Source: a phage
Direction: 5' to 3' (one strand)
Sequence record: PZ386967.1
DNA: 64,000 nucleotides
The translations under genes were made by a program, and so were the position numbers. Below the pieces are notes generated by a model. The model saw only the letters and a program-made list of their open reading frames with translations, ran no database searches and had not been told where the DNA came from. Positions 1 through 63,033 of the stretch are shown here, piece after piece; within the stretch, counting starts at the first letter, position 1; the number at the start of each line of letters is the position of its first letter.

Positions 1-351
1 ACGTTCTACAGATTGAACGACCTGCCCGAGAGCCAGTGGGTTTGTGTCGGCGCCATCAGTAGGACTTGAACCAGTCCAAGTCCAGGTGATGCGTAAATTC
101 TGGTATGCTTCGTCAAGGGCGAACCCCATAACCTCAGTACCAGGAATGATACCCGTTGGAGACCAACCTAAACCAGCAGAGGAGGCGTTAGAAGCAGGCA
201 TCAGTACCTTCGCCCACGGGAGTTTGTCTGTAGGCAGGAGGACGGGATCGTCGGTGTGTACGCCATAGATGCGGACGGCGACGCGCCCGTTTTGGTCTGG
301 ATCGTTGACATCTTCAACGGTGCCGTAAAACCATCTCATATTGTCTAACAT
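1..351 (-). CDS. baseplate central spike/hub protein, gp5-like N-terminal OB-fold domain (partial; C-terminus lies beyond window start)
   Basis: Minus-strand frame open from ATG at 351 to position 1 (117 codons, hand-translated: MLDNMRWFYGTVEDVNDPDQNGRVAVRIYGVH...LPTDKLPWAKVL...). WFxGxVxDVxDPxxxGRVxVRIxGxH...PTDxLPWA pattern is typical of phage baseplate spike N-termini. Not in the supplied ORF track because it is truncated. Confidence 0.5.
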   Translation of the reverse strand, partial: MLDNMRWFYGTVEDVNDPDQNGRVAVRIYGVHTDDPVLLPTDKLPWAKVLMPASNASSAGLGWSPTGIIPGTEVMGFALDEAYQNLRITWTWTGSSPTDGADTNPLALGQVVQSVER

Positions 352-385: not shown

Positions 386-393
386 TATTTATG
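386..393 (-). promoter_or_regulatory. candidate T4-type late promoter (CATAAATA on minus strand) about 34 nt upstream of gp5-like start
   Basis: Plus-strand tatttatg = minus CATAAATA, one mismatch from T4 late consensus TATAAATA; same spacing to start codon as the 6498-6505 element. Confidence 0.3.
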
Positions 394-690
394 CGCAGCT
401 GATTTTGCCTTATATACTATAGGAAGCTCTGCTTCCGTTCATTTTATTTGTTTTATTCGATCCTATTCGCTTCGCTCATCAAACCGCCCTATGCGGGCAG
501 CACCATTCCAATGCCATGGAGGCATAAGGGCGAGGCAATAACTGTACACCCCAGAACACTCCTTGAAAAATGGTATTTTACTGACAATCTGATTCAAAAC
601 AGACAAACACCAACAAATGACTCGGGAACAAGCCCATTATAGCAATTTCAGGTAAAAAGAGCGCGTGTTAACCGATTTTACAGTTAAGCC

Positions 691-716
691 AATAAAAATC
701 CCGCCGAAGCGGGATT
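691..716 (-). terminator. rho-independent terminator downstream of CDS 864..1670
   Basis: Stem ATCCCGC / GCGGGAT with CGAA loop; on the minus strand followed by TTTTTATTGG. Confidence 0.6.
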
Positions 717-863
717 ACTGTTTCTTAGACAACCTGACCTTGAGGGCTTCGGTTAACAAGTCAAGATGCCATGGCATCGACTCGTTGATTTCAAATATGC
801 TATAGCCGTGTAACTTCAATTCATCACACATCACGAAGTAGGATAATAAATCAGTTTCAAACA

Positions 864-1670
864 TTAAATGAAAATTTCATTAATACTATTGAATTCGATT
901 TTGTGCTCCTTACCACATTTCGGACACTTGATCGAACTCTTGTAGTGGATGCGCGGTATTTTATGGAAGAAGTTCTTCGTAATGCTGTCAATAACATCTG
1001 ATTCGATGTTATCCTTCACCCACTCAACAAACGCTTCTTTCACACGGCGGCGCTCAGTAGCCTCTTCCGGAGTGATTCCGATTTCTTCAGGATTCTCAAC
1101 CTTCCACACCTGACCGTCATCATCGTACAGACAGTCGATAAAGGTGGCCAGCATCATCTCAACGCTTGCAGCATCAGACAGTGCCGTAGCGTCCGAGAAG
1201 GAAGGTTGGCGCATCTTGAGGTGATATCCACCTGGCAGGTCAAACGTCTCCCGGAAGCCGTCCTGAGCAATGCATTTGACGTTGTTCAACGGGATAGGTA
1301 GAGTCAGTTCCTGCTCACAGGGAACCATCTGGTGCTTTTCTTGACCATCTCCCAGATCGATCGTTTCTTCAATCTGATTATTGCACTTATAACGAATCTT
1401 CATCAATTCACCGATGGAGATCATGCGCATGCGGATGAACACTTCCTCAACAACGCCGATTGGCAGTTTACTGAAAGGTGCGCCTGCATTTACACACTCG
1501 CTAAAGAGACTCTCCATCATGGCCGCGCGTTCTTCAATCGGCGTTTGCGGATCTGACACCTGAAGTAATAAAGTTTGTTGCCCCGCAGTAAAGGCGCGAT
1601 ATTTGATCACAGTAGGCCAAAAGTCGCTTTTATATGTCTTTTCTGTTCTGGGCAATGATGGTAAATTCAT
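864..1670 (-). CDS. hypothetical protein with C-terminal CxxC...zinc-ribbon-like motif (CPKCGKEH)
   Basis: ORF track 864..1784; start moved to ATG at 1670 (MNLPSLPRTEK...) which has GGAG 8 nt upstream and avoids overlap with 1714..2244. Function not recognised. Confidence 0.45.
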   Translation of the reverse strand: MNLPSLPRTEKTYKSDFWPTVIKYRAFTAGQQTLLLQVSDPQTPIEERAAMMESLFSECVNAGAPFSKLPIGVVEEVFIRMRMISIGELMKIRYKCNNQIEETIDLGDGQEKHQMVPCEQELTLPIPLNNVKCIAQDGFRETFDLPGGYHLKMRQPSFSDATALSDAASVEMMLATFIDCLYDDDGQVWKVENPEEIGITPEEATERRRVKEAFVEWVKDNIESDVIDSITKNFFHKIPRIHYKSSIKCPKCGKEHKIEFNSINEIFI

Positions 1671-1713
1671 AATGTATCTCCACGGTATATTGTAAGAGTA
1701 ATTATAACGAGGA

Positions 1714-2244
1714 ATGAAAATGCGCGGATTTTGTTTTAGTGAAATAGGCAAAGAACTGTCTATACAATATCCCGATCCCAACACAGACTTCTTTATCTTC
1801 CTGACTGATTATGCCAAGAAAGAGAATATCCTCCATGTGGCAATGAAACACGAAGATTATAAGTTCTGTCGGCTGGGTGTCAAAGACCTGCTGCGTTATG
1901 GTCTACAAGTGGTCATTGTAGACCCATACTACAGCCCTATCGACGATGAAGAAGTTCTACCCGTATATGTTCACCGCAACATCAATACATTGGAAAAGCA
2001 TTATCCAGATTGTATTGTCATCGGCGAACTCATCTCGTATTATCATCGTGTGCGAAAGCTGGAACAGATTAAAAGTTATTTTCAAGAGGGTGTTGGTCAA
2101 TATAAGATGAATGCCCTTAGTAGTGGATGGATGGTGCTGTCTTCAGCAGGCAGTGCTGACTATATTAAGATGCGTGTCTACCAATACGTTGTGGAGCGCG
2201 ATTATGAACTGGAGAAAAGTAATGCAAAACGAAAAACCCGTTGA
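1714..2244 (+). CDS. hypothetical protein
   Basis: 176-aa ORF, first gene of a plus-strand run ending at gp32; no recognisable motifs. Confidence 0.4.
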   Translation: MKMRGFCFSEIGKELSIQYPDPNTDFFIFLTDYAKKENILHVAMKHEDYKFCRLGVKDLLRYGLQVVIVDPYYSPIDDEEVLPVYVHRNINTLEKHYPDCIVIGELISYYHRVRKLEQIKSYFQEGVGQYKMNALSSGWMVLSSAGSADYIKMRVYQYVVERDYELEKSNAKRKTR

Positions 2245-2713
2245 ACGTGCTCCGATTGAGGAAGTACAACAACACGTCCTGGACCTTATGAAACACACAG
2301 TTTCTGATGCCGAAGGTAAAGTGCCGGATGAGTTCATCGGTGCGTTCGATCAGGTGGCTTTCGATACAGAGGGAGTTCCTTTGATCCAGACGATCGCTGG
2401 TATGGTTTTGTTTGAACCAAAAGCAGTAGAAAATGGCGTAATCGTCTACTCAGCCAACATCGGTGTGGACGGTGAGTCCCTGTCTCTCGAAGTTAGCAAC
2501 ATTGCTAAGTACCTGATCAAGTGTGGTTATGATCTGCAGGTTGTGACAGCCCACTACATCGATCCTCAGGGACAGATCTCCTACGGTGATGAAGCGCGCA
2601 AAGTGAAACGCCACATCGACACTACCGTGATCCTGCAGAGTATCCAACAGATGCAGAAGAACCTGGACCACCCTGGTCTGATCCTACCTGATAGCAAAAT
2701 CATCACCCGTTAA
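2222..2713 (+). CDS. hypothetical protein
   Basis: ORF track 2111..2713; internal ATG at 2222 (MQNEKPVER...) has GGAGAAAAGT upstream and overlaps the previous stop by 23 nt. Confidence 0.4.
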   Translation: MQNEKPVERAPIEEVQQHVLDLMKHTVSDAEGKVPDEFIGAFDQVAFDTEGVPLIQTIAGMVLFEPKAVENGVIVYSANIGVDGESLSLEVSNIAKYLIKCGYDLQVVTAHYIDPQGQISYGDEARKVKRHIDTTVILQSIQQMQKNLDHPGLILPDSKIITR

Positions 2714-2764
2714 CCCGGCGTAAATAGCCCATACACCAATGAAACTTCGTTATGGGCTATTTAC

Positions 2765-3355
2765 ATGAAATATTGCGGAATCGACTACTCCTATGGCTGT
2801 CCATCCCTGTGCTTCTGGGATGACAAAGACCCTCTTGATTTTGATCATCTGCGCTTCTACGCATATTATACTGTGGAGAAGTACTGCACTCAGATTCGTC
2901 AGAATATCCTTATCATGAAGCAACCGAAGTGGGAGACCCCAGAAGAACGCTTCTATAACATCTGTAAATGGGCTGAGGCTGTCCTGTTGACTGAGAAGCC
3001 GGATGTGATCACTCTTGAAGGGTATGCTATGGGCAACTCTAAGAACTCCAACAACATATGCCAGACCGCAGAGAATACCTCACTGTTGAAGCAAGCCCTG
3101 CGCCGTAACAATTTCGACTTCCAGATCGTGACGCCATCCCATGTGAAGAAGATGTTCACCGACAAGGGCAACGCGGATAAACACGCCATGATCGCTCACT
3201 TCGAGTCGCTGTTCAATGTTAATATGCGCGGTATAATGGATATGTTGGAAGTTAAGGATCCTAAGCCAATCGATGACCTCGTGGATTCGTTTGCGATAAT
3301 GGCTTGTGGCTCTTACTTCATTGAGAATAATCCAGACTTCAACAGAGGTATATGA
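2765..3355 (+). CDS. RuvC-like Holliday junction resolvase (putative)
   Basis: N-terminal CGIDYSYG (catalytic Asp context), ITLEGYA (Glu), C-terminal PIDDLVDSFAIMACG resembling the RuvC D-x-x-D-A motif. Motif-level only. Confidence 0.4.
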   Translation: MKYCGIDYSYGCPSLCFWDDKDPLDFDHLRFYAYYTVEKYCTQIRQNILIMKQPKWETPEERFYNICKWAEAVLLTEKPDVITLEGYAMGNSKNSNNICQTAENTSLLKQALRRNNFDFQIVTPSHVKKMFTDKGNADKHAMIAHFESLFNVNMRGIMDMLEVKDPKPIDDLVDSFAIMACGSYFIENNPDFNRGI

Positions 3356-3666
3356 TGGTCGATTATTGGTTGTTGGCGAACTTCCTGACGTTCGCTTTGT
3401 TGTTAGTGGTTGTCTTGGTCTGGGTGAAGTCGTTCTTCACTCTGGTTCATGCGTATGTGTACCAGATCAACTTCTACACGCTGTCCCCACATCGTGACAC
3501 GAACGTTCGTGCCGATCAACAGGCCGAGGCTATCCTCTCATATCAGTTCATCCACATGCGCGATAAAATGATCAAGCGTGTAGTGTTTTCTACAGTGATG
3601 TTGCTGGTTATCATTATGGTGCGTTTCGTACTGACAACCGTGGGGGTGTTCCATGCCGCTGTATGA
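3352..3666 (+). CDS. small membrane protein (hypothetical)
   Basis: Hydrophobic N-terminus (LLANFLTFALLLVVVLVWV) and second hydrophobic stretch; start overlaps upstream stop. Confidence 0.35.
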   Translation: MMVDYWLLANFLTFALLLVVVLVWVKSFFTLVHAYVYQINFYTLSPHRDTNVRADQQAEAILSYQFIHMRDKMIKRVVFSTVMLLVIIMVRFVLTTVGVFHAAV

Positions 3667-3898
3667 TTATCAATGCAAGGGCTGTGGTAACGCGATGACA
3701 CTGCGTAAATCTATTGCAGATCGCCATGAGCCTGAATCCAACCCTTGCACTGAGTGCGGAGGGGAGATTAAAATGATCGTGGGTGCTCCCAAGATTGTCT
3801 CTGGGGTGAAGGGACCACAATCAGCTCCAGACGGCTTCAAGGACGTCTTGCGTACGATAAAGAAGGGTTCGGGTAAGGGGAACACAATCGATGTCTGA
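3653..3898 (+). CDS. FmdB-family zinc-ribbon protein (putative)
   Basis: MPLYDYQCKGCG...CTECGG matches the MPxYxYxCxxCG...CxxCG zinc-ribbon signature. Confidence 0.45.
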   Translation: MPLYDYQCKGCGNAMTLRKSIADRHEPESNPCTECGGEIKMIVGAPKIVSGVKGPQSAPDGFKDVLRTIKKGSGKGNTIDV

Positions 3899-4136
3899 CG
3901 AAAAACAGCCAGCGCTTGTGATGACACCAGAATTATTTTCTGAAATCGTCCTACTACGCGCCGCCCAAACCAAGGATAGTATCCTTGAGACTCTGGCAGC
4001 TGTCTGTGAAGAGAACGACATAGACGAGACCAAAGTCAAAAAGATGATTACAGCACCATTGTTGTCACGACTGACAGCTGAGTGCTCCGATGCGCGCCTG
4101 ATCAAAGACGCGCTAAAGTCTAAGAAATTAGTGTAG
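3891..4136 (+). CDS. hypothetical protein
   Basis: 81-aa ORF in operon context, overlapping upstream stop. Confidence 0.35.
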   Translation: MSDEKQPALVMTPELFSEIVLLRAAQTKDSILETLAAVCEENDIDETKVKKMITAPLLSRLTAECSDARLIKDALKSKKLV

Positions 4137-4143
4137 GTCTATT

Positions 4144-4383
4144 ATGAGCAAAGAATCAATTTACAGCGCAATGAAAGCCTCCGAATTCCTTCCTGGCTCT
4201 ATGCGCTGGCGTGTGGGTAGCCTGAACGAGCATGCCGACCAGACGGATCGTATTCGTTACGTTACCCCTGATGGTCGCTCATATGTCGTTGAGTATCACA
4301 CGCACGACGAAGGCAAGAAGACGTTTTCGGACGTGTTCGACATTATTGAAATTGACCCAGCAAATCAAGTGCTTAAAGGTTAA
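4144..4383 (+). CDS. hypothetical protein
   Basis: 79-aa ORF directly upstream of the gp32 promoter/hairpin. Confidence 0.35.
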   Translation: MSKESIYSAMKASEFLPGSMRWRVGSLNEHADQTDRIRYVTPDGRSYVVEYHTHDEGKKTFSDVFDIIEIDPANQVLKG

Positions 4384-4407
4384 TTCAATGTAAGATCGGG
4401 GTATAAT
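4384..4407 (+). promoter_or_regulatory. TTCAAT-box / TATAAT promoter upstream of gp32, with -10 inside hairpin CGGGGTA-TAAT-TACCCCG
   Basis: TTCAAT at 4384-4389, TATAAT at 4402-4407; 7-bp GC stem flanks the -10; gp32 ATG at 4482. Confidence 0.4.
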
Positions 4408-4481
4408 TACCCCGCTTTGTAGCAAACTGAAATACATGTAACAGAATAGCCCTGAGGGGCGGAAACAGAGGAAATTAAGAA

Positions 4482-5492
4482 ATGGGTAATTTATTCGATC
4501 GTCTGAAAGCATCTCGTGGCCAGCAAACTGAAGCAATGCAGGCGCGTCTTGCACAGCAAGGCCAGAAGTCCGGTTTCCAGAAGGATCCTCGCATCTGGAA
4601 ATGGACTTGGAACAAAGATGGTATCTCCGAGAATATCATCCGCTTCCTGCCAGTCCCGCTGGTAGACCTCAAGGCACAGGAAGAAGGGACGATCGATAAA
4701 GATCAGATCCTCACCCCTTGTGCCATGATCATGAAGCATCAGTTCCAAGGACCTGGTGGTTGGTACATTGAGAACTCACCTCAGACGTTCGGCAACGACG
4801 ATCCGGTGCGCGACCATGACCGTCCGCTGTGGGCGCAGCAGAAAGAAACGAACGACGAAAAGCTGAAGGACATCCTGAAGAAACGTCTACCCAACACCGA
4901 TTACTACGCTAACATTCTGGTGATCAAAGATGTCAACGTACCGGAAAACAACGGCAAGGTCTTCCTGTTGAAATTTGGTAACGCCATCAAGAAAATCCTG
5001 GATCAGGCGCAGAATCCTAAGTTCCCAACCGACCCTAAATTCGATCCGTTCGATCTGTGGGAAGGTGCCAACCTGAACCTGAAGCTCTTTGGCGAGCAGA
5101 AGAAGTTTGGGAACTGGGAAGGTCTGGTGGCAAACTTCAGTAAGGTGGTGTGGGAGAACCCTGCCCCGCTGAGTGATGACGAAGCGTATATGGAAGACGT
5201 CTGGTCTCGTGAGCATAGCCTGTTTGAATTCTTCAATCCGGCTAACTTCAAAGACTACGACACCCTGGAAAAGCGCCTGCGCAAAGTTCTGGCAATTCCT
5301 GATGACCAGCCTCTGGTTGAAGGTGGTGCAGCCACGATGGCTCATGCTCCTAGCACCCAGACTACACATCAGCCAACTGCTCAAGACAGCCTGAAACAGC
5401 AACAGGCCGCGCCGTCGCAGGCTCAGACTCAACCGGATGCCAGAAACACGGCTACCATTGATGAATTCGAGCAGTATCTCAAGTCTAACTGA
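4482..5492 (+). CDS. 32: single-stranded DNA-binding protein (T4 gp32 family)
   Basis: IRFLP, YYANILVIKDVNVPENNGKVF and WEGANLNLK match remembered gp32 blocks; GAGGAAA SD; acidic C-terminal tail. Confidence 0.85.
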   Translation: MGNLFDRLKASRGQQTEAMQARLAQQGQKSGFQKDPRIWKWTWNKDGISENIIRFLPVPLVDLKAQEEGTIDKDQILTPCAMIMKHQFQGPGGWYIENSPQTFGNDDPVRDHDRPLWAQQKETNDEKLKDILKKRLPNTDYYANILVIKDVNVPENNGKVFLLKFGNAIKKILDQAQNPKFPTDPKFDPFDLWEGANLNLKLFGEQKKFGNWEGLVANFSKVVWENPAPLSDDEAYMEDVWSREHSLFEFFNPANFKDYDTLEKRLRKVLAIPDDQPLVEGGAATMAHAPSTQTTHQPTAQDSLKQQQAAPSQAQTQPDARNTATIDEFEQYLKSN

Positions 5493-5498
5493 TCAAAC

Positions 5499-5527
5499 AA
5501 GCCATCTTCGGATGGCTTTTTATTTTC
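5499..5527. terminator. bidirectional rho-independent terminator between convergent gp32 and 5520..6464
   Basis: AAGCCATC-TTCG-GATGGCTT hairpin with T-run on plus strand (TTTTATTTT) and A/T-rich flank on the other side. Confidence 0.65.
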
Positions 5528-6464
5528 CCATCACGTCTTTCAATATCCCCAACAGGCTTGTCTTCTCCGCCGCCGTCAGGTTATCGTTGCCCATGATGTC
5601 ACGAGAGATACCTACCGAGATGCGCTCGAAGTCCTGTATGCTTATCCCAGCCAGGTTGTTTACAAGTTGGTCAAGCTGTTTGTAAGCCAGGAGAGCCTCT
5701 CCTGTGAAGTTCCCTTCTTTCACCTTGCGATAAAGCTGTCCGGCTTTTGAGGCCGCAGTTTCCCAGTCACCACTGGTAAGAGCGTCAGCAATACCGAGAG
5801 GAAGAAAATCGCTGGAAAGGCTGCGTGTTTCATATTCTGTCTCCGAAAGCACTTTGTTGTAAGAGAAAGAAATGTTGTACTGGTTGAACTGGTCTGTGGC
5901 ACCTTTATCCAGCTCAATAGAACTGAAATTTATTGGGTGAGCCTCGACGATGTAGACGCGGTGGACCACTTGATCTTCGGTGTCAAGCTGTTCAATGCAT
6001 ATGTCAGTCACGAAGTCTTCGTAATATCCCATTTTGGTGGTGTGTGGATCAAAGATCAGACTCTTCCACTTGTCCATCACAGACTTCTCATAATAGTCAT
6101 TGGCTAATAAGAATGACAAGTCGAGGTCGACGTTGGACTTGTTGTTCGGCATCTTGATGTGATTACCGTTGCTTGTCATTGGAGTGGTGTCGATACCAAC
6201 CCCTGGCAATGAGGCAACCATACACATCATCTGAAGGGAACGGGACGTCTGGTTTGTCCCTCCAAAGAAAGCGTTTACAATACGGGCTGACTGCTTAAAC
6301 AAGTCACCGAAAGATGAATTGGTTCTGTACGCCTTTCCGTCATTAGCCAGAGTGGCATTGGAGTCAAAGATCCCTGGTGGTAGAGGGATGGTCACTCTGA
6401 AGCGGTTCTTGCGCGACAAGCCCCGCTGTAATATCTGTGTGATAAAATTGCGATAGTCTTCCAC
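5520..6464 (-). CDS. tail tube / baseplate-tail-tube junction family protein (gp19/gp48/gp54-like, putative)
   Basis: N-terminal RFRVTIPLPPGIF...VASLPGVGI resembles the tail-tube fold signature; GTG start with GGAG SD; TATAAATA late promoter 34 nt upstream. Confidence 0.4.
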   Translation of the reverse strand: MEDYRNFITQILQRGLSRKNRFRVTIPLPPGIFDSNATLANDGKAYRTNSSFGDLFKQSARIVNAFFGGTNQTSRSLQMMCMVASLPGVGIDTTPMTSNGNHIKMPNNKSNVDLDLSFLLANDYYEKSVMDKWKSLIFDPHTTKMGYYEDFVTDICIEQLDTEDQVVHRVYIVEAHPINFSSIELDKGATDQFNQYNISFSYNKVLSETEYETRSLSSDFLPLGIADALTSGDWETAASKAGQLYRKVKEGNFTGEALLAYKQLDQLVNNLAGISIQDFERISVGISRDIMGNDNLTAAEKTSLLGILKDVMGK

Positions 6465-6497
6465 GGTGAGGACTCCACTTAAATAAAATAACTGTTA

Positions 6498-6505
6498 TTA
6501 TTTAT
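6498..6505 (-). promoter_or_regulatory. T4-type late promoter TATAAATA (minus strand) upstream of 5520..6464
   Basis: Plus tatttata = minus TATAAATA, exact T4 late consensus, 34 nt from the start codon. Confidence 0.45.
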
Positions 6506-6517
6506 AGGAGTTGACAA

Positions 6518-7222
6518 ATGGCAAAGAATGCAGCTGGCGAAGAAGATCCGTTGCTGTTTCCGGCCGAGATGGACGCCCCCGAGCTGGTCAAGCGTTACAT
6601 CCGCAAGTACCGTCAACACTTCGGTCCAGAGGCGAAGCGTAACATCCGCCGTTCGCATGTGTGGTTCATGGAGCGTGTGTCTAAGGACGCCAACCTGAAT
6701 CCCAACCATATGAAACAGGCGTTTGCTGATCACAAACGTCCGGTACAAGGTGTGCGGTATATAGTCGGGCGTATGTTCTATTTCAAATATGATGCTCTGA
6801 CGAAGAATGAACTACCCTACTGGGATATGTACCCTCTGGTGTTCTTCTTCAACTTTGTCAAGGGTGATGGTATCACCTTTGGAGAGAAGGGTGTGACATA
6901 CCTCTGGGGACTCAACATGCACTACCTGCCACCGAAGCTCAGGCTGTTGGTGTTTGAGGATCTGATTAAGTTGCGTAACGAACGGGCATACCGCTCAAAG
7001 ACGCGTCTGAAGCTCACCTGGGAAGCCCTGAAGCGCTTCGCCAACCATCCGCTGTACAATCACTGTGTGAAGCTGTACCGCGCCGATCAGTTCCGTTCAC
7101 AGCTTTACGAGATTGAACCACAGTACTGGGAGATCGTTCTCTTCATGCGCACGGCTCGCTTCCAGAAACAGAGCCAGATGTCTGTGTGGAAAGATGCACG
7201 TCGTATGCATAAGAAGAAATAG
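6518..7222 (+). CDS. hypothetical protein
   Basis: 234-aa ORF with GGAG SD; basic C-terminus; no recognisable motif. Confidence 0.45.
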   Translation: MAKNAAGEEDPLLFPAEMDAPELVKRYIRKYRQHFGPEAKRNIRRSHVWFMERVSKDANLNPNHMKQAFADHKRPVQGVRYIVGRMFYFKYDALTKNELPYWDMYPLVFFFNFVKGDGITFGEKGVTYLWGLNMHYLPPKLRLLVFEDLIKLRNERAYRSKTRLKLTWEALKRFANHPLYNHCVKLYRADQFRSQLYEIEPQYWEIVLFMRTARFQKQSQMSVWKDARRMHKKK

Positions 7223-27531: not shown

Positions 27532-27581
27532 GGTCTCAGCCCTTAAATAGATAGAGTGTTATGGCTATTTAGGACTAGATT

Positions 27582-50167: not shown

Positions 50168-50338
50168 AGATTACTTTTTCTTCAGCTCTTCCAGCTTGGC
50201 TTCAATTTGGTCCAGAATCTCTTTACCTTTCTGGACGATGGCTTCACCATCTTGCGCGTGTTTACGGAAGACCAAAGCACCAGCGATGAAGCCGACAACC
50301 GCGCCAGGAAGCGCATAAACCAGCAGATCTTGTAACAT
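50168..50338 (-). CDS. small membrane peptide (56 aa, hypothetical), not in ORF track
   Basis: Hand-translated minus ORF MLQDLLVYALPGAVVGFIAGALVFRKH...EELKKK with strong SD (GAGGATATTATC) and terminator downstream; coordinates approximate. Confidence 0.35.
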
Positions 50339-50374
50339 GATAATATCCTCGCTTTATAGGCGAGGATATTTATA

Positions 50375-54553: not shown

Positions 54554-54579
54554 ATTATATCCCCCTTTGGTTTATTGAA
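54554..54579 (-). promoter_or_regulatory. TTCAAT-box / TATAAT promoter with -10 in loop of GGGGGA/TCCCCC hairpin
   Basis: Minus TTCAAT 54579-54574, 14-nt spacer, TATAAT 54559-54554; immediately downstream of DNA polymerase stop. Confidence 0.4.
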
Positions 54580-59182: not shown

Positions 59183-59636
59183 CTTCCCAGAAGTCTTCGT
59201 CGTCCCCGACAGCAGCCAGTTCCGTGTCCAGTTCTTCATCGGTAAACGGTGGCAGCACCCCGTTCTGAATCAGATAATCCATCTCATCATCTTCCAGCTG
59301 CAGGTCGGTGGCAATATACAGCGCTCCGCTGCCCTCTTCGTCCGTCTCGATACTGTACGAAGTGTATGGCACCCCATTCACTGTAATGATGATAGACGTT
59401 GGATCCTTGGGATCTACGTGCGCCTCGAACGGCACACCATCAATCGGTGCATCTTCTAGGAAGGTAGCAAGTGCTACGGCGGCGCGGACAACATCAGTGC
59501 CTTCAACGCCCGCATAGATCTCTTCCGCGCCTGTCTCTTCACGATCAAACAGCTCAATCGTGATACCGTCTTGAACACCAGTCCATACAGGGATGTCATT
59601 GGTGTATTCTGATTCAAACAATTTGGAGGTTGGCAT
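59178..59636 (-). CDS. hypothetical acidic protein
   Basis: 152-aa ORF, Asp/Glu-rich. Confidence 0.4.
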   Translation of the reverse strand: MPTSKLFESEYTNDIPVWTGVQDGITIELFDREETGAEEIYAGVEGTDVVRAAVALATFLEDAPIDGVPFEAHVDPKDPTSIIITVNGVPYTSYSIETDEEGSGALYIATDLQLEDDEMDYLIQNGVLPPFTDEELDTELAAVGDDEDFWEE

Positions 59637-59780
59637 GTTGGGTTCCTCAGTGGGTTAGCCATATGGGGTATTTAGGCTTCCCGCTTGGCGAGGTCTGGTT
59701 TGTACAGGACGCCTCTCGGAAATATTGGAGGAAGGTTTTCATAGATACCCCACACGGATTGTATGGGGTATTCAGGAGGG

Positions 59781-62058: not shown

Positions 62059-62147
62059 TTGGCGGAAGGTGAAGGATTCGAACCTTCGGGGGCTAAAAGC
62101 CCCACTCGATTAGCAGTCGAGTCCCTTAAACCTCTCGGGCAACCTTC
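62059..62147 (-). tRNA. tRNA-Ser (anticodon GCU), class II with long variable arm
   Basis: Hand-folded: acceptor GGAAGGT/ACCTTCC, anticodon stem CTCGA/TCGAG with loop CTGCTAA, variable hairpin GGGGC-TTTTA-GCCCC, T-arm GAAGG-TTCGAAT-CCTTC, discriminator G, encoded CCA. Confidence 0.8.
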
Positions 62148-62368
62148 CAATTTGGACGGGCTTCACACCCGATTGAGCATTTGATCTGCTGTAGCCCAAC
62201 TCCCCGCGCTTCTCAGCGCCGATTGGTTAACTGGCGACCAGTGCCTTCTGGTTCGATCTCCTGGAACTTTACAGGCTTTGCGCCCGACCATTTCTGGAAG
62301 TTGGGGCATCGTTTCCGATGTGGAGTCACCCCATTTTATACACAGCTGGCTGCAACGCTTACTGTGTT

Positions 62369-62452
62369 TGGTGTGAGTGGATGGATTCGAACCACCGCGC
62401 TGTTACGGGGAGATTTACAGTCTCCTGCATTCGACCGCTCTGCCACACTCAC
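62369..62452 (-). tRNA. tRNA-Tyr (anticodon GUA)
   Basis: Acceptor GTGAGTG/CACTCAC, anticodon stem GGAGA/TCTCC loop CTGTAAA, long variable arm, T-loop TTCGAAT, discriminator A, CCA. Confidence 0.75.
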
Positions 62453-62709
62453 ATTTGGTCTGCCGCTGCGTGCTGGGCCACGCTCGAGGACATCGGCCAT
62501 CCTTCCTCAGCTAATCCACGCAGCGGTAGATTTGTATCAGAGTGTCCGGTGTAGCAACCCGTGAGGTGCGCACTACTGTAGCCTCTACACTCTGAATTTG
62601 GTGGGCGTTACTATCGTCGTCTTCGGATTCCGTTCGGCTATTGGACAGAGGCTTGGAGCTTGTCGGTCGCGTACTTTATGCCTATTCACTTTCGTTCACA
62701 CCCATTGTC

Positions 62710-62785
62710 TGGCGACGATGGCAGGACTTGAACCTGCGACATACGGTTTAACAGACCGCCGTTCTACCGACTGAACTACATCGTC
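62710..62785 (-). tRNA. tRNA-Asn (anticodon GUU)
   Basis: Acceptor GACGATG/CATCGTC, D-arm GTTC-AGTCGGTA-GAAC, anticodon loop CTGTTAA, T-arm GCAGG-TTCAAGT-CCTGC, discriminator G, CCA. Confidence 0.85.
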
Positions 62786-62794
62786 TTGCAAATC

Positions 62795-62819
62795 ACTATA
62801 CCATATAAAGTTTATTGAA
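62795..62819 (-). promoter_or_regulatory. TTCAAT-box / TATAGT promoter positioned to start transcription just upstream of tRNA-Asn
   Basis: Minus TTCAAT 62819-62814, 13-nt spacer, TATAGT 62800-62795, 9 nt before the mature tRNA 5' end. Confidence 0.45.
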
Positions 62820-62956
62820 CAAACATTTATTTTACAACAAACTGTATTGGCGGGGTCTGAGGCTTTTCACCTCACCTGCTGGGTTTGGCCGCCCAGCCGT
62901 TCTCTATGAGGATTCACTGTCCGGACAGCTATCCATTAAACTATCGCCCCTCAATA

Positions 62957-63033
62957 TGGTGATCCTGATTGGGTTTGAACCAATGACCAATGAATTATGA
63001 GTTCACTGCTCTAACCGACTGAGCTACAGGACC
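62957..63033 (-). tRNA. tRNA with CAU anticodon (elongator Met or Ile2-lysidine type)
   Basis: Acceptor GGTCCTG/CAGGATC (one G-U), D-arm GCTC-AGTCGGTTA-GAGC, anticodon loop CTCATAA, T-arm ATTGG-TTCAAAC-CCAAT, discriminator A, CCA; no initiator-specific features. Confidence 0.75.

Follow-up and report, generated by a model that had tools for sequence, protein, structure and literature searches.

The two AT-rich boxes found upstream of a gp54-like and a gp5-like gene are very probably genuine promoters of late genes, recognised by a T4-like sigma factor of the phage. Both lie in the window, the whole stretch of 64,000 nucleotides analysed here (PZ386967.1), which belongs to an Ackermannviridae (ViI-like) phage with 98.7% identity to Enterobacter phage fGh-Ecl02; Shigella phage Ag3 is about 93% identical to the window. 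We consider it likely that the boxes function as -10-type late promoters for host RNA polymerase carrying a gp55-like sigma factor. In the proposed mechanism, gp55 would recognise an octamer at positions -13 to -6 without any -35 element, the gp33 coactivator and the gp45 sliding clamp would assist the polymerase by analogy with T4, and RNA synthesis would begin about 6 nt further on, at A6493 for gp54 and A380 for gp5, producing 29-nt leaders that carry the Shine-Dalgarno sequence. Genome-wide counts were taken from the complete genome of fGh-Ecl02, and the conservation of individual sites was compared over seven lineages, including Coodle and PhaxI.

The predicted promoter of the gp54-like gene is TATAAATA on the minus strand at 6499-6506, an exact match to the T4 consensus. 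The preliminary description had identified the motif and its strand correctly, whereas its position, 6498-6505, was one base off. Six of the seven lineages carry TATAAATA at this site and Coodle carries TATAAGTA, within a spacer that varies. The region from -5 to -2, C-rich in the family motif, reads ATAAC here. The downstream gene (5520-6464, minus strand) encodes a gp54-like baseplate tail-tube initiator, as judged from the annotation and from a full-length match starting at residue 1 to PHROG 3629 (E=1.5e-176); PHROG 45 (tail tube) also supports the assignment to the tail-tube family made in the preliminary description. It stands alone on the minus strand, with plus-strand gp32 and gp2 on either side.

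The box upstream of the gp5-like gene is CATAAATA on the minus strand at 386-393, exactly as first described, and its flanks vary although the octamer itself is kept in all seven lineages. For this comparison, we used a start-anchored listing of the upstream regions; a MAFFT alignment misplaced the two most distant lineages. This putative gp55-type promoter departs from the T4 octamer at -13 only, a position where T4-like phages conserve the T poorly, so that CATAAATA falls within the known range of late promoters. CCTTC around -5 to -2 partly resembles the C-rich stretch of the family motif. The gene, of which only the 5' part (1-351, minus strand) lies in the window, matches PHROG 430 (baseplate hub and tail lysozyme; E=4.7e-49), in agreement with its earlier identification as gp5-like, and the annotation of fGh-Ecl02 describes its counterpart as similar to T4 gp5. 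An intrinsic terminator on the minus strand (697-716; AATCCCGCTTCGGCGGGATT then TTTATT) closes the gp26 operon upstream, so that gp5 needs its own promoter. The gp26-like hub gene (PHROG 150; start 1670) is itself preceded by TATAATTA at 1699-1706 on the minus strand, a degenerate form of a late promoter that reads TATAAATA in five of the six other lineages. Upstream terminators isolate both transcription units, which we counted in favour of the promoter reading.

In both cases, the box is separated by exactly 34 nt from the start codon, the GTG at 6464 and the ATG at 351. The preliminary description had pointed out the identical spacing of these two sites. Yet 34 nt is the most frequent spacing in the class as a whole and is shared by a third site in the window, that of gp48, so that it is a property of the class without special meaning.

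The signal is non-random in its placement and not in the number of motifs. In the window, TATAAATA occurs twice against 0.69 expected (two or more copies in 11 of 100 shuffles), CATAAATA once against 1.35 expected, and TAAATA 16 times against 14.5 expected, none of which is a significant enrichment. These counts, within chance expectation, are what one would expect if the boxes were functionless octamers arising by chance in AT-rich intergenic DNA. This explanation is strongly disfavoured, and we regard it as highly improbable, since both motifs are conserved in seven lineages inside variable spacers and since the positional enrichment (p about 4e-27) and the association with late genes would be left unexplained. 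Of the 16 copies of TAAATA in the window, eleven are placed 26-39 nt ahead of the start of a gene running in the same direction. In fGh-Ecl02, half of the copies (28/56) lie 10-60 nt ahead of a start in the same orientation, compared with a background of 3.2%, which places TAAATA first among all 4096 hexamers (p=3.8e-27) and ahead of every other hexamer composed of A and T only. The exact octamer TATAAATA is in promoter position in four of its five copies in this genome. TAAATA precedes 13 of 21 late genes but only 14 of 90 other genes (OR 8.8, p=4e-5). The capsid and portal genes have no exact TAAATA upstream, so our model of the late-promoter class is incomplete.

The 28 sites also define what the class looks like. 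Their spacing to the start codon ranges from 23 to 42 nt with the mode at 34 nt (5/28), base counts at -19 to -14 reveal no preference, and the base at -12 is C in 13, A in 7, T in 6 and G in 2. The late consensus of the phage family is CTAAATAC(CCC) with C at -12, and the gp54 and gp5 sites, which share the TAAATA core conserved across seven lineages, are minority variants with A at -12 and not literal copies of CTAAATAcCcc. The preliminary description had proposed a gp55-type promoter class beside the TTCAAT class. This core idea stands on the gp33, gp55 and gp45 homologues, the conservation and the association with late genes, whereas the motif was defined too narrowly. It had also made enrichment of TATAAATA before other structural genes its refutation test, but in the window the exact octamer stands in front of a single structural gene, and this test would therefore fail even though the mechanism is probably right. 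At least four late promoters of the same class had been missed, those of gp2, gp4, gp48 and ruvC.

The motifs CTAAATAcCcc and TTCAAT...TATAAT are cited for the family in PMC7283392. The second class, a two-box sigma-70-like arrangement of the form TTCAAT[N14]TATAAT in which the first box stands 13-16 nt ahead of a TATAAT-like one, has five copies in the window (at 3212, 15612, 18160, 54554 and 61730) against 0.07 expected. Both motifs reportedly go back to the first description of the genus (Adriaenssens et al. 2012, Arch Virol). In contrast to the late class, TTCAAT elements precede non-structural genes only (9/90 versus 0/21 late genes), and they are absent at 386-393 and 6499-6506.

A sigma-70 origin could nevertheless be envisaged for the boxes themselves, if they were -10 elements for host sigma-70 that placed gp54 and gp5 on an early or constitutive route. 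Indeed, a sigma-70-like match, TTGCCA-16-AATAAT (10/12), overlaps the gp54 box at 6524-6497 on the minus strand, and a conserved TATAGT/TATAAT box with a hairpin precedes the gp5 box by about 25 nt. However, the hexamer taken as -35 in the gp54 match consists of the first codons of gp2 in reverse complement and is altered in Coodle and PhaxI, and in relatives, the 98.7%-identical genome among them, the apparent -10 hexamer reads AATAAC, AATACC or AATATC whereas TATAAATA is retained. Because the -35 region of gp54 overlaps the gp2 start and its Shine-Dalgarno sequence, it is conserved for another reason. We rejected a sigma-70 promoter over the gp54 box, as neither hexamer is conserved as such whereas the octamer is. 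At the gp5 box itself, no match of the sigma-70 type was reported, and the sigma-70-like class precedes none of the 21 late genes. Taken together, a host sigma-70 route for gp54 and gp5 appears quite unlikely.

The spacer of only 53 nt between gp54 and gp2 contains a second putative late promoter on the opposite strand. CTTAAATA at 6478-6485 on the plus strand, with TTAAATA invariant in 7/7 lineages, lies 32 nt before the ATG at 6518 of the gp2-like DNA end protector gene (6518-7222, plus strand; PHROG 429, E=2e-67), and its predicted +1 is A6491. An intrinsic terminator after gp32 (5499-5518, plus strand) halts read-through toward gp2, which therefore needs its own promoter. The two promoters overlap face to face, and each motif is situated in the leader of the other gene beside its Shine-Dalgarno sequence: the minus-strand TATAAATA reads TATTTATA on the plus strand directly before the GGAG of gp2, and TTAAATA adjoins the GGAG of gp54. 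Their conservation could thus partly have another cause. One may go further and suppose that conservation has nothing to do with initiation at all, and that the motifs are AU-rich leaders aiding translation of the opposite-strand gene or the site of another phage protein. The adjoining GGAG sequences, where the constraints overlap, are in line with this explanation for gp2/gp54. On the other hand, the gp5 site has no opposite-strand gene and is still invariant in seven lineages. Moreover, the enrichment of TAAATA is strand-specific, with only 7 reverse complements against 28 forward copies in promoter position in fGh-Ecl02 and a narrow spacing of 23-42 nt, and the motif agrees with the late-promoter consensus of T4 and Aeh1. 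We therefore regard this alternative as improbable.

Recognition by a gp55-like factor as late-gene promoters is consistent with the proteins encoded in the window and in fGh-Ecl02. Among gp55, gp33 and gp45, the window contains gp33 only (3891-4136, plus strand), whose product scores 64.4 bits with Pfam PF16805 against a cutoff of 25 and weakly matches the T4 gp33 chains 3tbi and 7d7d. The gp55 homologue is encoded at 88570-89361 in fGh-Ecl02 and covers the full profile of PHROG 234 (E=5.6e-52). Searches with this protein against Pfam and, as a single sequence, against the PDB were negative, and PHROGs or a profile of 15 homologues was needed; the latter finds the T4 gp55 chain 7d7c_F (E=7.3e-7). 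The gp45 homologue of fGh-Ecl02 matches PHROG 223 (E=1.1e-64), with the Pfam C-terminal domain below the cutoff (18.6 vs 25). N13, T99, R57 and F86 of T4 gp55 are conserved in the family homologue, and N13 and T99 hold the flipped -9 and -8 adenines in T4. The family protein has 263 residues versus 185 in T4, with W in place of Y97, F in place of H95 and a 5-residue insertion nearby. We considered the Y97-to-W replacement as the cause of C at -12, which is not supported, because Aeh1, also with C at -12 in its consensus, keeps H95 and Y97 like T4. Aeromonas phage Aswh_1, presumed to be a relative of Aeh1, turned out to be a phage-65-like Ishigurovirus.

The likeness to T4, where gp55 acts with gp33 and gp45 on TATAAATA at -13 to -6, thus includes the same octamer at the gp54 site, the position upstream of virion genes, possibly the lack of a -35 element, and the homologues of all three proteins. 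DNA identity to T4 is nil, and the likeness of gp55 is detectable by profile search only. Unlike T4, in which gp55 flips A at -12 into a pocket against Y97, most late promoters of the family have C at -12. The Ackermannviridae ('Viunalikevirus') motif CTAAATAcCcc and the Aeh1 motif CTAAATA share the TAAATA core in the same position and orientation before late genes; the CTAAATA form is the majority in this same genome, whereas the gp54 and gp5 sites have A instead of C.

Further members of the class occur elsewhere in the window. A second face-to-face divergent pair consists of CCTAAATA at 27566-27573 on the minus strand, the late promoter of the gp48-gp53-hub-tape measure operon as annotated (start 27531, 34-nt spacing), and CTTAAATA at 27542-27549 on the plus strand, the late promoter of gp4 (head completion, start 27582). 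The full family consensus, CCTAAATA with CCCC after it, is also present at 59669-59676 on the minus strand, and a hypothetical gene (PHROG 3852) starts 32 nt further on, at 59636. The second exact TATAAATA of the window (50367-50374, minus strand) lies 28 nt before a gene for a 55-aa protein of unknown function (start 50338; PHROG 3879), within a hairpin that occludes the ribosome-binding site (RBS; fold z=-5.6). Likewise, the plus-strand CGTAAATA at 2719-2726, whose TAAATA is invariant, is followed by the gene of a RuvC-like resolvase (start 2765) and supplies the 5' arm of a hairpin (2720-2763; fold z=-6.1) in which the ribosome-binding region is paired. When each lineage was folded separately, this hairpin appeared in all seven with differing stem sequences; RNAalifold, run on the ruvC leaders aligned with MAFFT, recovered only 5 pairs, because indels shift the hairpin arms. 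About nine promoters, roughly a third, lie in the 5' arm of a hairpin that occludes the RBS, an arrangement that is sensible only if the RNA starts just downstream of the motif and that is documented for the T4 genes e, soc, 49 and I-TevI. Folding revealed no such supporting hairpin at the gp54 and gp5 sites, and an Rfam scan of the window returned four tRNAs only, with no match near the sites.

Both sites have been published before. The Ag3 paper (Anany et al. 2011, PMC3121705, Additional file 2) lists putative late promoters, Porf072 and Porf084, which were sought as TATAAATA with at most one mismatch and correspond to the gp54 and gp5 sites, respectively, in that ~93% identical genome. The printed 'tctttgccatttgtcaactcctataaata' matches the window exactly and 'tataaggcaaaatccgctgcgcataaata' differs by one base. 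The paper assigns Porf072 to gp2, but in the sequence as printed the gp2 start is present as its reverse complement, and the orientation is toward gp54, in line with the preliminary description; the gp2 promoter CTTAAATA on the opposite strand is absent from its list. We found no 5'-end mapping or timing data in the literature for any member of the family. With both sites published in 2011 for a near-identical phage, and as minority variants of a known motif, the finding is correct but ordinary, and the biology of both sites is expected.

Putting these observations together, we tentatively suggest, as a possibility that we hold with less than even confidence, that the gp55 of the family reads a relaxed nTAAATA that tolerates C, A or T at -12, where T4 gp55 flips an A against Y97, and that it does so with a remodelled pocket having W in place of Y97, F in place of H95 and the 5-residue insertion. 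The choice at -12 would be fixed per gene across genera, the hub genes (gp5, gp26 and gp54) carrying A, gp2 carrying T and the genes for fibres, sheath and head carrying C, and may tune strength or timing. The third or so of late promoters placed in RBS-occluding hairpins would allow only late-initiated RNA to be translated, and some face-to-face pairs would form mutually exclusive open complexes. Late promoters in this family should be searched for as nTAAATA about 23-42 nt before a start codon rather than as TATAAATA. Base-level predictions are now available for two start sites, and their practical value lies in annotation and engineering. On the late-promoter reading, ViI-like phages, common candidates for biocontrol and therapy, keep the T4 coupling of virion-gene transcription to a dedicated sigma factor.

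Over its first 12 kb, the window is 98.7% identical to Enterobacter phage fGh-Ecl02 (ON212266.1) and about 93% identical to Shigella phage Ag3, which identifies it as a ViI-like myovirus (family Ackermannviridae). The fGh-Ecl02 record is filed as Kuttervirus, and the region is about 93% identical to Ag3, an Agtrevirus, and only about 78% to Kuttervirus phages. A cluster of four tRNA genes lies at 62063-63033 (minus strand). Gene identities were taken from the deposited fGh-Ecl02 annotation and from PHROG scans, which were in agreement. The gp5-like baseplate hub/lysozyme gene starts at 351 (minus) and continues past the left end of the window, the gp54-like tail-tube initiator gene occupies 5520-6464 (minus), and the gp2-like DNA end protector gene occupies 6518-7222 (plus). 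Because terminators lie 3' of gp32 (5499-5518, plus) and at the close of the gp26 operon (716-697, minus), gp2 and gp5 need promoters of their own. Likewise, gp54 needs a promoter within the 53-nt spacer to gp2, since it stands alone on the minus strand among plus-strand neighbours.

The preliminary description had placed a T4-type late promoter before gp5 and another before gp54. The octamer CATAAATA was found before gp5 where it had been reported, at 386-393 (minus), and the exact T4 late-promoter octamer TATAAATA is indeed present before gp54, at 6499-6506 (minus), one base off the reported 6498-6505. Both octamers finish exactly 34 nt upstream of the start codon, as described, and transcription is predicted to start at 380 (minus) for gp5 and 6493 (minus) for gp54. 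Counts by themselves are uninformative, and the occurrence of the octamers is unsurprising: the window holds two copies of TATAAATA against 0.69 expected (at least two in 11 of 100 shuffles), one copy of CATAAATA against 1.35, and 16 copies of the TAAATA core against 14.5.

The signal is placement, not abundance. We rebuilt the fGh-Ecl02 genome (153 kb, 192 annotated genes) for a placement test, in which 28 of 56 TAAATA copies lay 10-60 nt before a co-oriented start, a placement that covers 3.2% of strand positions as background and that the reverse complement takes only seven times. Among all 4,096 hexamers, TAAATA ranked first for start-proximal placement (p=3.8e-27), outranking the sigma-70 -10 box TATAAT. 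The top octamer was CTAAATAC, the family late consensus, with 10 of 12 copies in promoter placement; exact TATAAATA had four of five. At the 28 sites, the base at -12, just before the core, was C in 13, A in seven, T in six and G in two, positions -5 to -2 were rich in C, and the predicted +1 was mostly A. Such placement is seen for 11 of the 16 TAAATA copies in the window. The original interpretation was sound in substance, while its motif definition was too narrow, the class being nTAAATA with the consensus CTAAATAC, and at least four further class members in the window had been left out. No special meaning attaches to the shared 34-nt spacing, which is simply the modal spacing of the class (five sites; range 23-42 nt).

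TAAATA precedes 13 of the 21 late or structural fGh-Ecl02 genes with an upstream gap, as compared with 14 of 90 others (odds ratio 8.8, p=4e-5). The second promoter class that had been proposed beside it was also recovered: TTCAAT-N13-16-TAWAAT matches the window five times against 0.07 expected, at 3212, 15612 and 18160 (plus) and at 54554 and 61730 (minus), and in fGh-Ecl02 TTCAAT...TATAAT stands before none of the 21 late or structural genes and nine of the 90 others. Several family members have the -10 box of this class within a G+C hairpin loop, for example GGGGGATATAATTCCCCC. The fGh-Ecl02 major capsid gene (56805), portal gene (52920) and a neighbouring gene (54652) have no exact TAAATA and carry CTAAGTAA, CTAATTAC and CTAAGTAT, respectively, at the distance where a box would be expected. 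Weaker promoter variants are one possibility, and read-through into these three genes from upstream late promoters is another.

We compared the homologous regions of six other lineages (an unclassified Yersinia phage, Limestonevirus, Taipeivirus, Kuttervirus, Miltonvirus and Nezavisimistyvirus), making seven with the window. The gp5 site reads CATAAATA in all seven, the gp54 site reads TATAAATA in six, with TATAAGTA in phage Coodle, and the gp2 site on the opposite strand reads TTAAATA in all seven. The ruvC site likewise keeps TAAATA in all seven lineages, and its -12 base varies. At the gp26 site (1699-1706, minus), five of the six other lineages have TATAAATA, and the window and fGh-Ecl02 have TATAATTA, a lineage-specific change within an otherwise invariant AAA core. 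In the alignment of the gp2/gp54 spacer, both promoter boxes, the Shine-Dalgarno core (two G's in GGAG) and the start codon are invariant, with variable bases between these blocks. A match of sigma-70 type, TTGCCA-16-AATAAT, lies across the gp54 box and could have accounted for it as a sigma-70-type promoter, but its "-35" consists of the opening codons of gp2 in reverse complement and its "-10" is not kept even in the closest relative, and we therefore rejected this reading in favour of a late promoter.

At 416-436 (minus), some 25 nt upstream from the late promoter of gp5, the hairpin GGAAGC-AGA-GCTTCC stands immediately before TATAGT. From genus to genus the stem changes in a compensatory way, to GGATGC/GCATCC in KpS110 and to GGCGGC/GCCGCC in Bue1; PhaxI, KpS110 and Bue1 all have TATAAT as the box. 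This element could be a second, sigma-70-type gp5 promoter, or the hairpin, which a T-rich run follows on the plus strand, could serve as a terminator on that strand. No gene is annotated in the 363 nt that separate gp5 from the gp26 operon (352-714), yet this stretch is alignable at about 72% identity up to Kuttervirus; Rfam gave no match in it.

The retention of a gp55-type late system is supported by gp33 in the window (3891-4136, plus; annotation and PHROG; PF16805, 64 bits) and by homologues of gp55 (PHROG 234, "late sigma transcription factor", E=5.6e-52) and gp45 (PHROG 223, E=1.1e-64) beyond the window, in the 98.7%-identical fGh-Ecl02 genome. The gp55 homologue had no match in Pfam, nor in the PDB with a single sequence; with a 15-member family profile, the best PDB match was T4 gp55 (7d7c_F, E=7.3e-7). 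In the T4 gp55 structure, bases -12, -9 and -8 are flipped out, with the -12 adenine stacked on Y97, the -9 adenine contacted by N13 and H95, and the -8 adenine bonded by T99 (PMC7892883). Alignment with T4 shows that N13, R57, F86 and T99 are retained, H95 is replaced by F and Y97 by an invariant W, with a five-residue insertion adjoining. This pattern fits a conserved AAA core with an altered -12 preference. The Y97-to-W substitution is not a general explanation for C at -12, because Aeh1 late promoters likewise have C there (PMC1524935) and Aeh1 gp55 retains H95 and Y97 in the alignment.

At roughly nine of these 28 sites, a stem of 9-14 bp, with the downstream half of the promoter as its 5' arm, pairs the Shine-Dalgarno region. 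The mean Shine-Dalgarno paired probability was 0.71 in read-through RNA, as compared with 0.51 in 74 control genes (p=9e-6), and 0.45 in RNA from the predicted late start. Hairpin-embedded boxes, pairing with the Shine-Dalgarno or start region with z as low as -6.6, lie at 2719-2765 (plus) and 50338-50374 (minus) in the window, and at the endolysin gene, three tailspike genes and gp14 in fGh-Ecl02. Among the window leaders, that of ruvC gave z=-6.1 and that of the gene starting at 50338, which contains the window's other exact TATAAATA, gave z=-5.6; the ruvC hairpin is found in all seven lineages with differing stem sequences. Neither focal site has such a hairpin in the fold test (z=-1.1 and +1.0). 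Genes e, soc, 49 and I-TevI of T4 have been reported to be arranged in the same way (PMC3014915), and T4 e and 49 correspond in function to the endolysin and the Holliday-junction resolvase that are hairpin-gated here. Such a design is sensible only where transcription begins just downstream from the motif. Two late-promoter pairs, gp2/gp54 (6478-6506) and gp4/gp48 (27542-27573), diverge face to face, with each -10 box within the leader of the other gene. With starts predicted at 6491 (plus) and 6493 (minus) in the first pair and at 27555 (plus) and 27560 (minus) in the second, the overlaps amount to 3 nt and 6 nt, and the paired open complexes should therefore exclude each other.

Both TTCAAT[N14]TATAAT and CTAAATAcCcc reportedly originate from the 2012 "Viunalikevirus" genus proposal. 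The EspM4VN paper cites them as the "two unique regulatory motifs" of the group (PMC7283392). The Ag3 study scanned for TATAAATA, allowing one mismatch, and its supplement lists as putative late promoters both focal sites and one before gp6; the gp54 site is named there after gp2, although its printed sequence points to gp54 (PMC3121705). The CBA120 paper noted the gp55, gp33 and gp45 homologues and stated that the family late motif was unidentified (PMC3184105), and the LIMEstone1 paper predicted 33 late promoters in silico (PMC3296691). We found no transcript mapping of the ViI-like family in the literature. The observation at the two focal sites is real, and the finding was already known. 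What may be new, in a modest way, is the extent to which late promoters of the ViI-like family are hairpin-gated, the two face-to-face divergent late-promoter pairs, and the conservation of the -12 base gene by gene.
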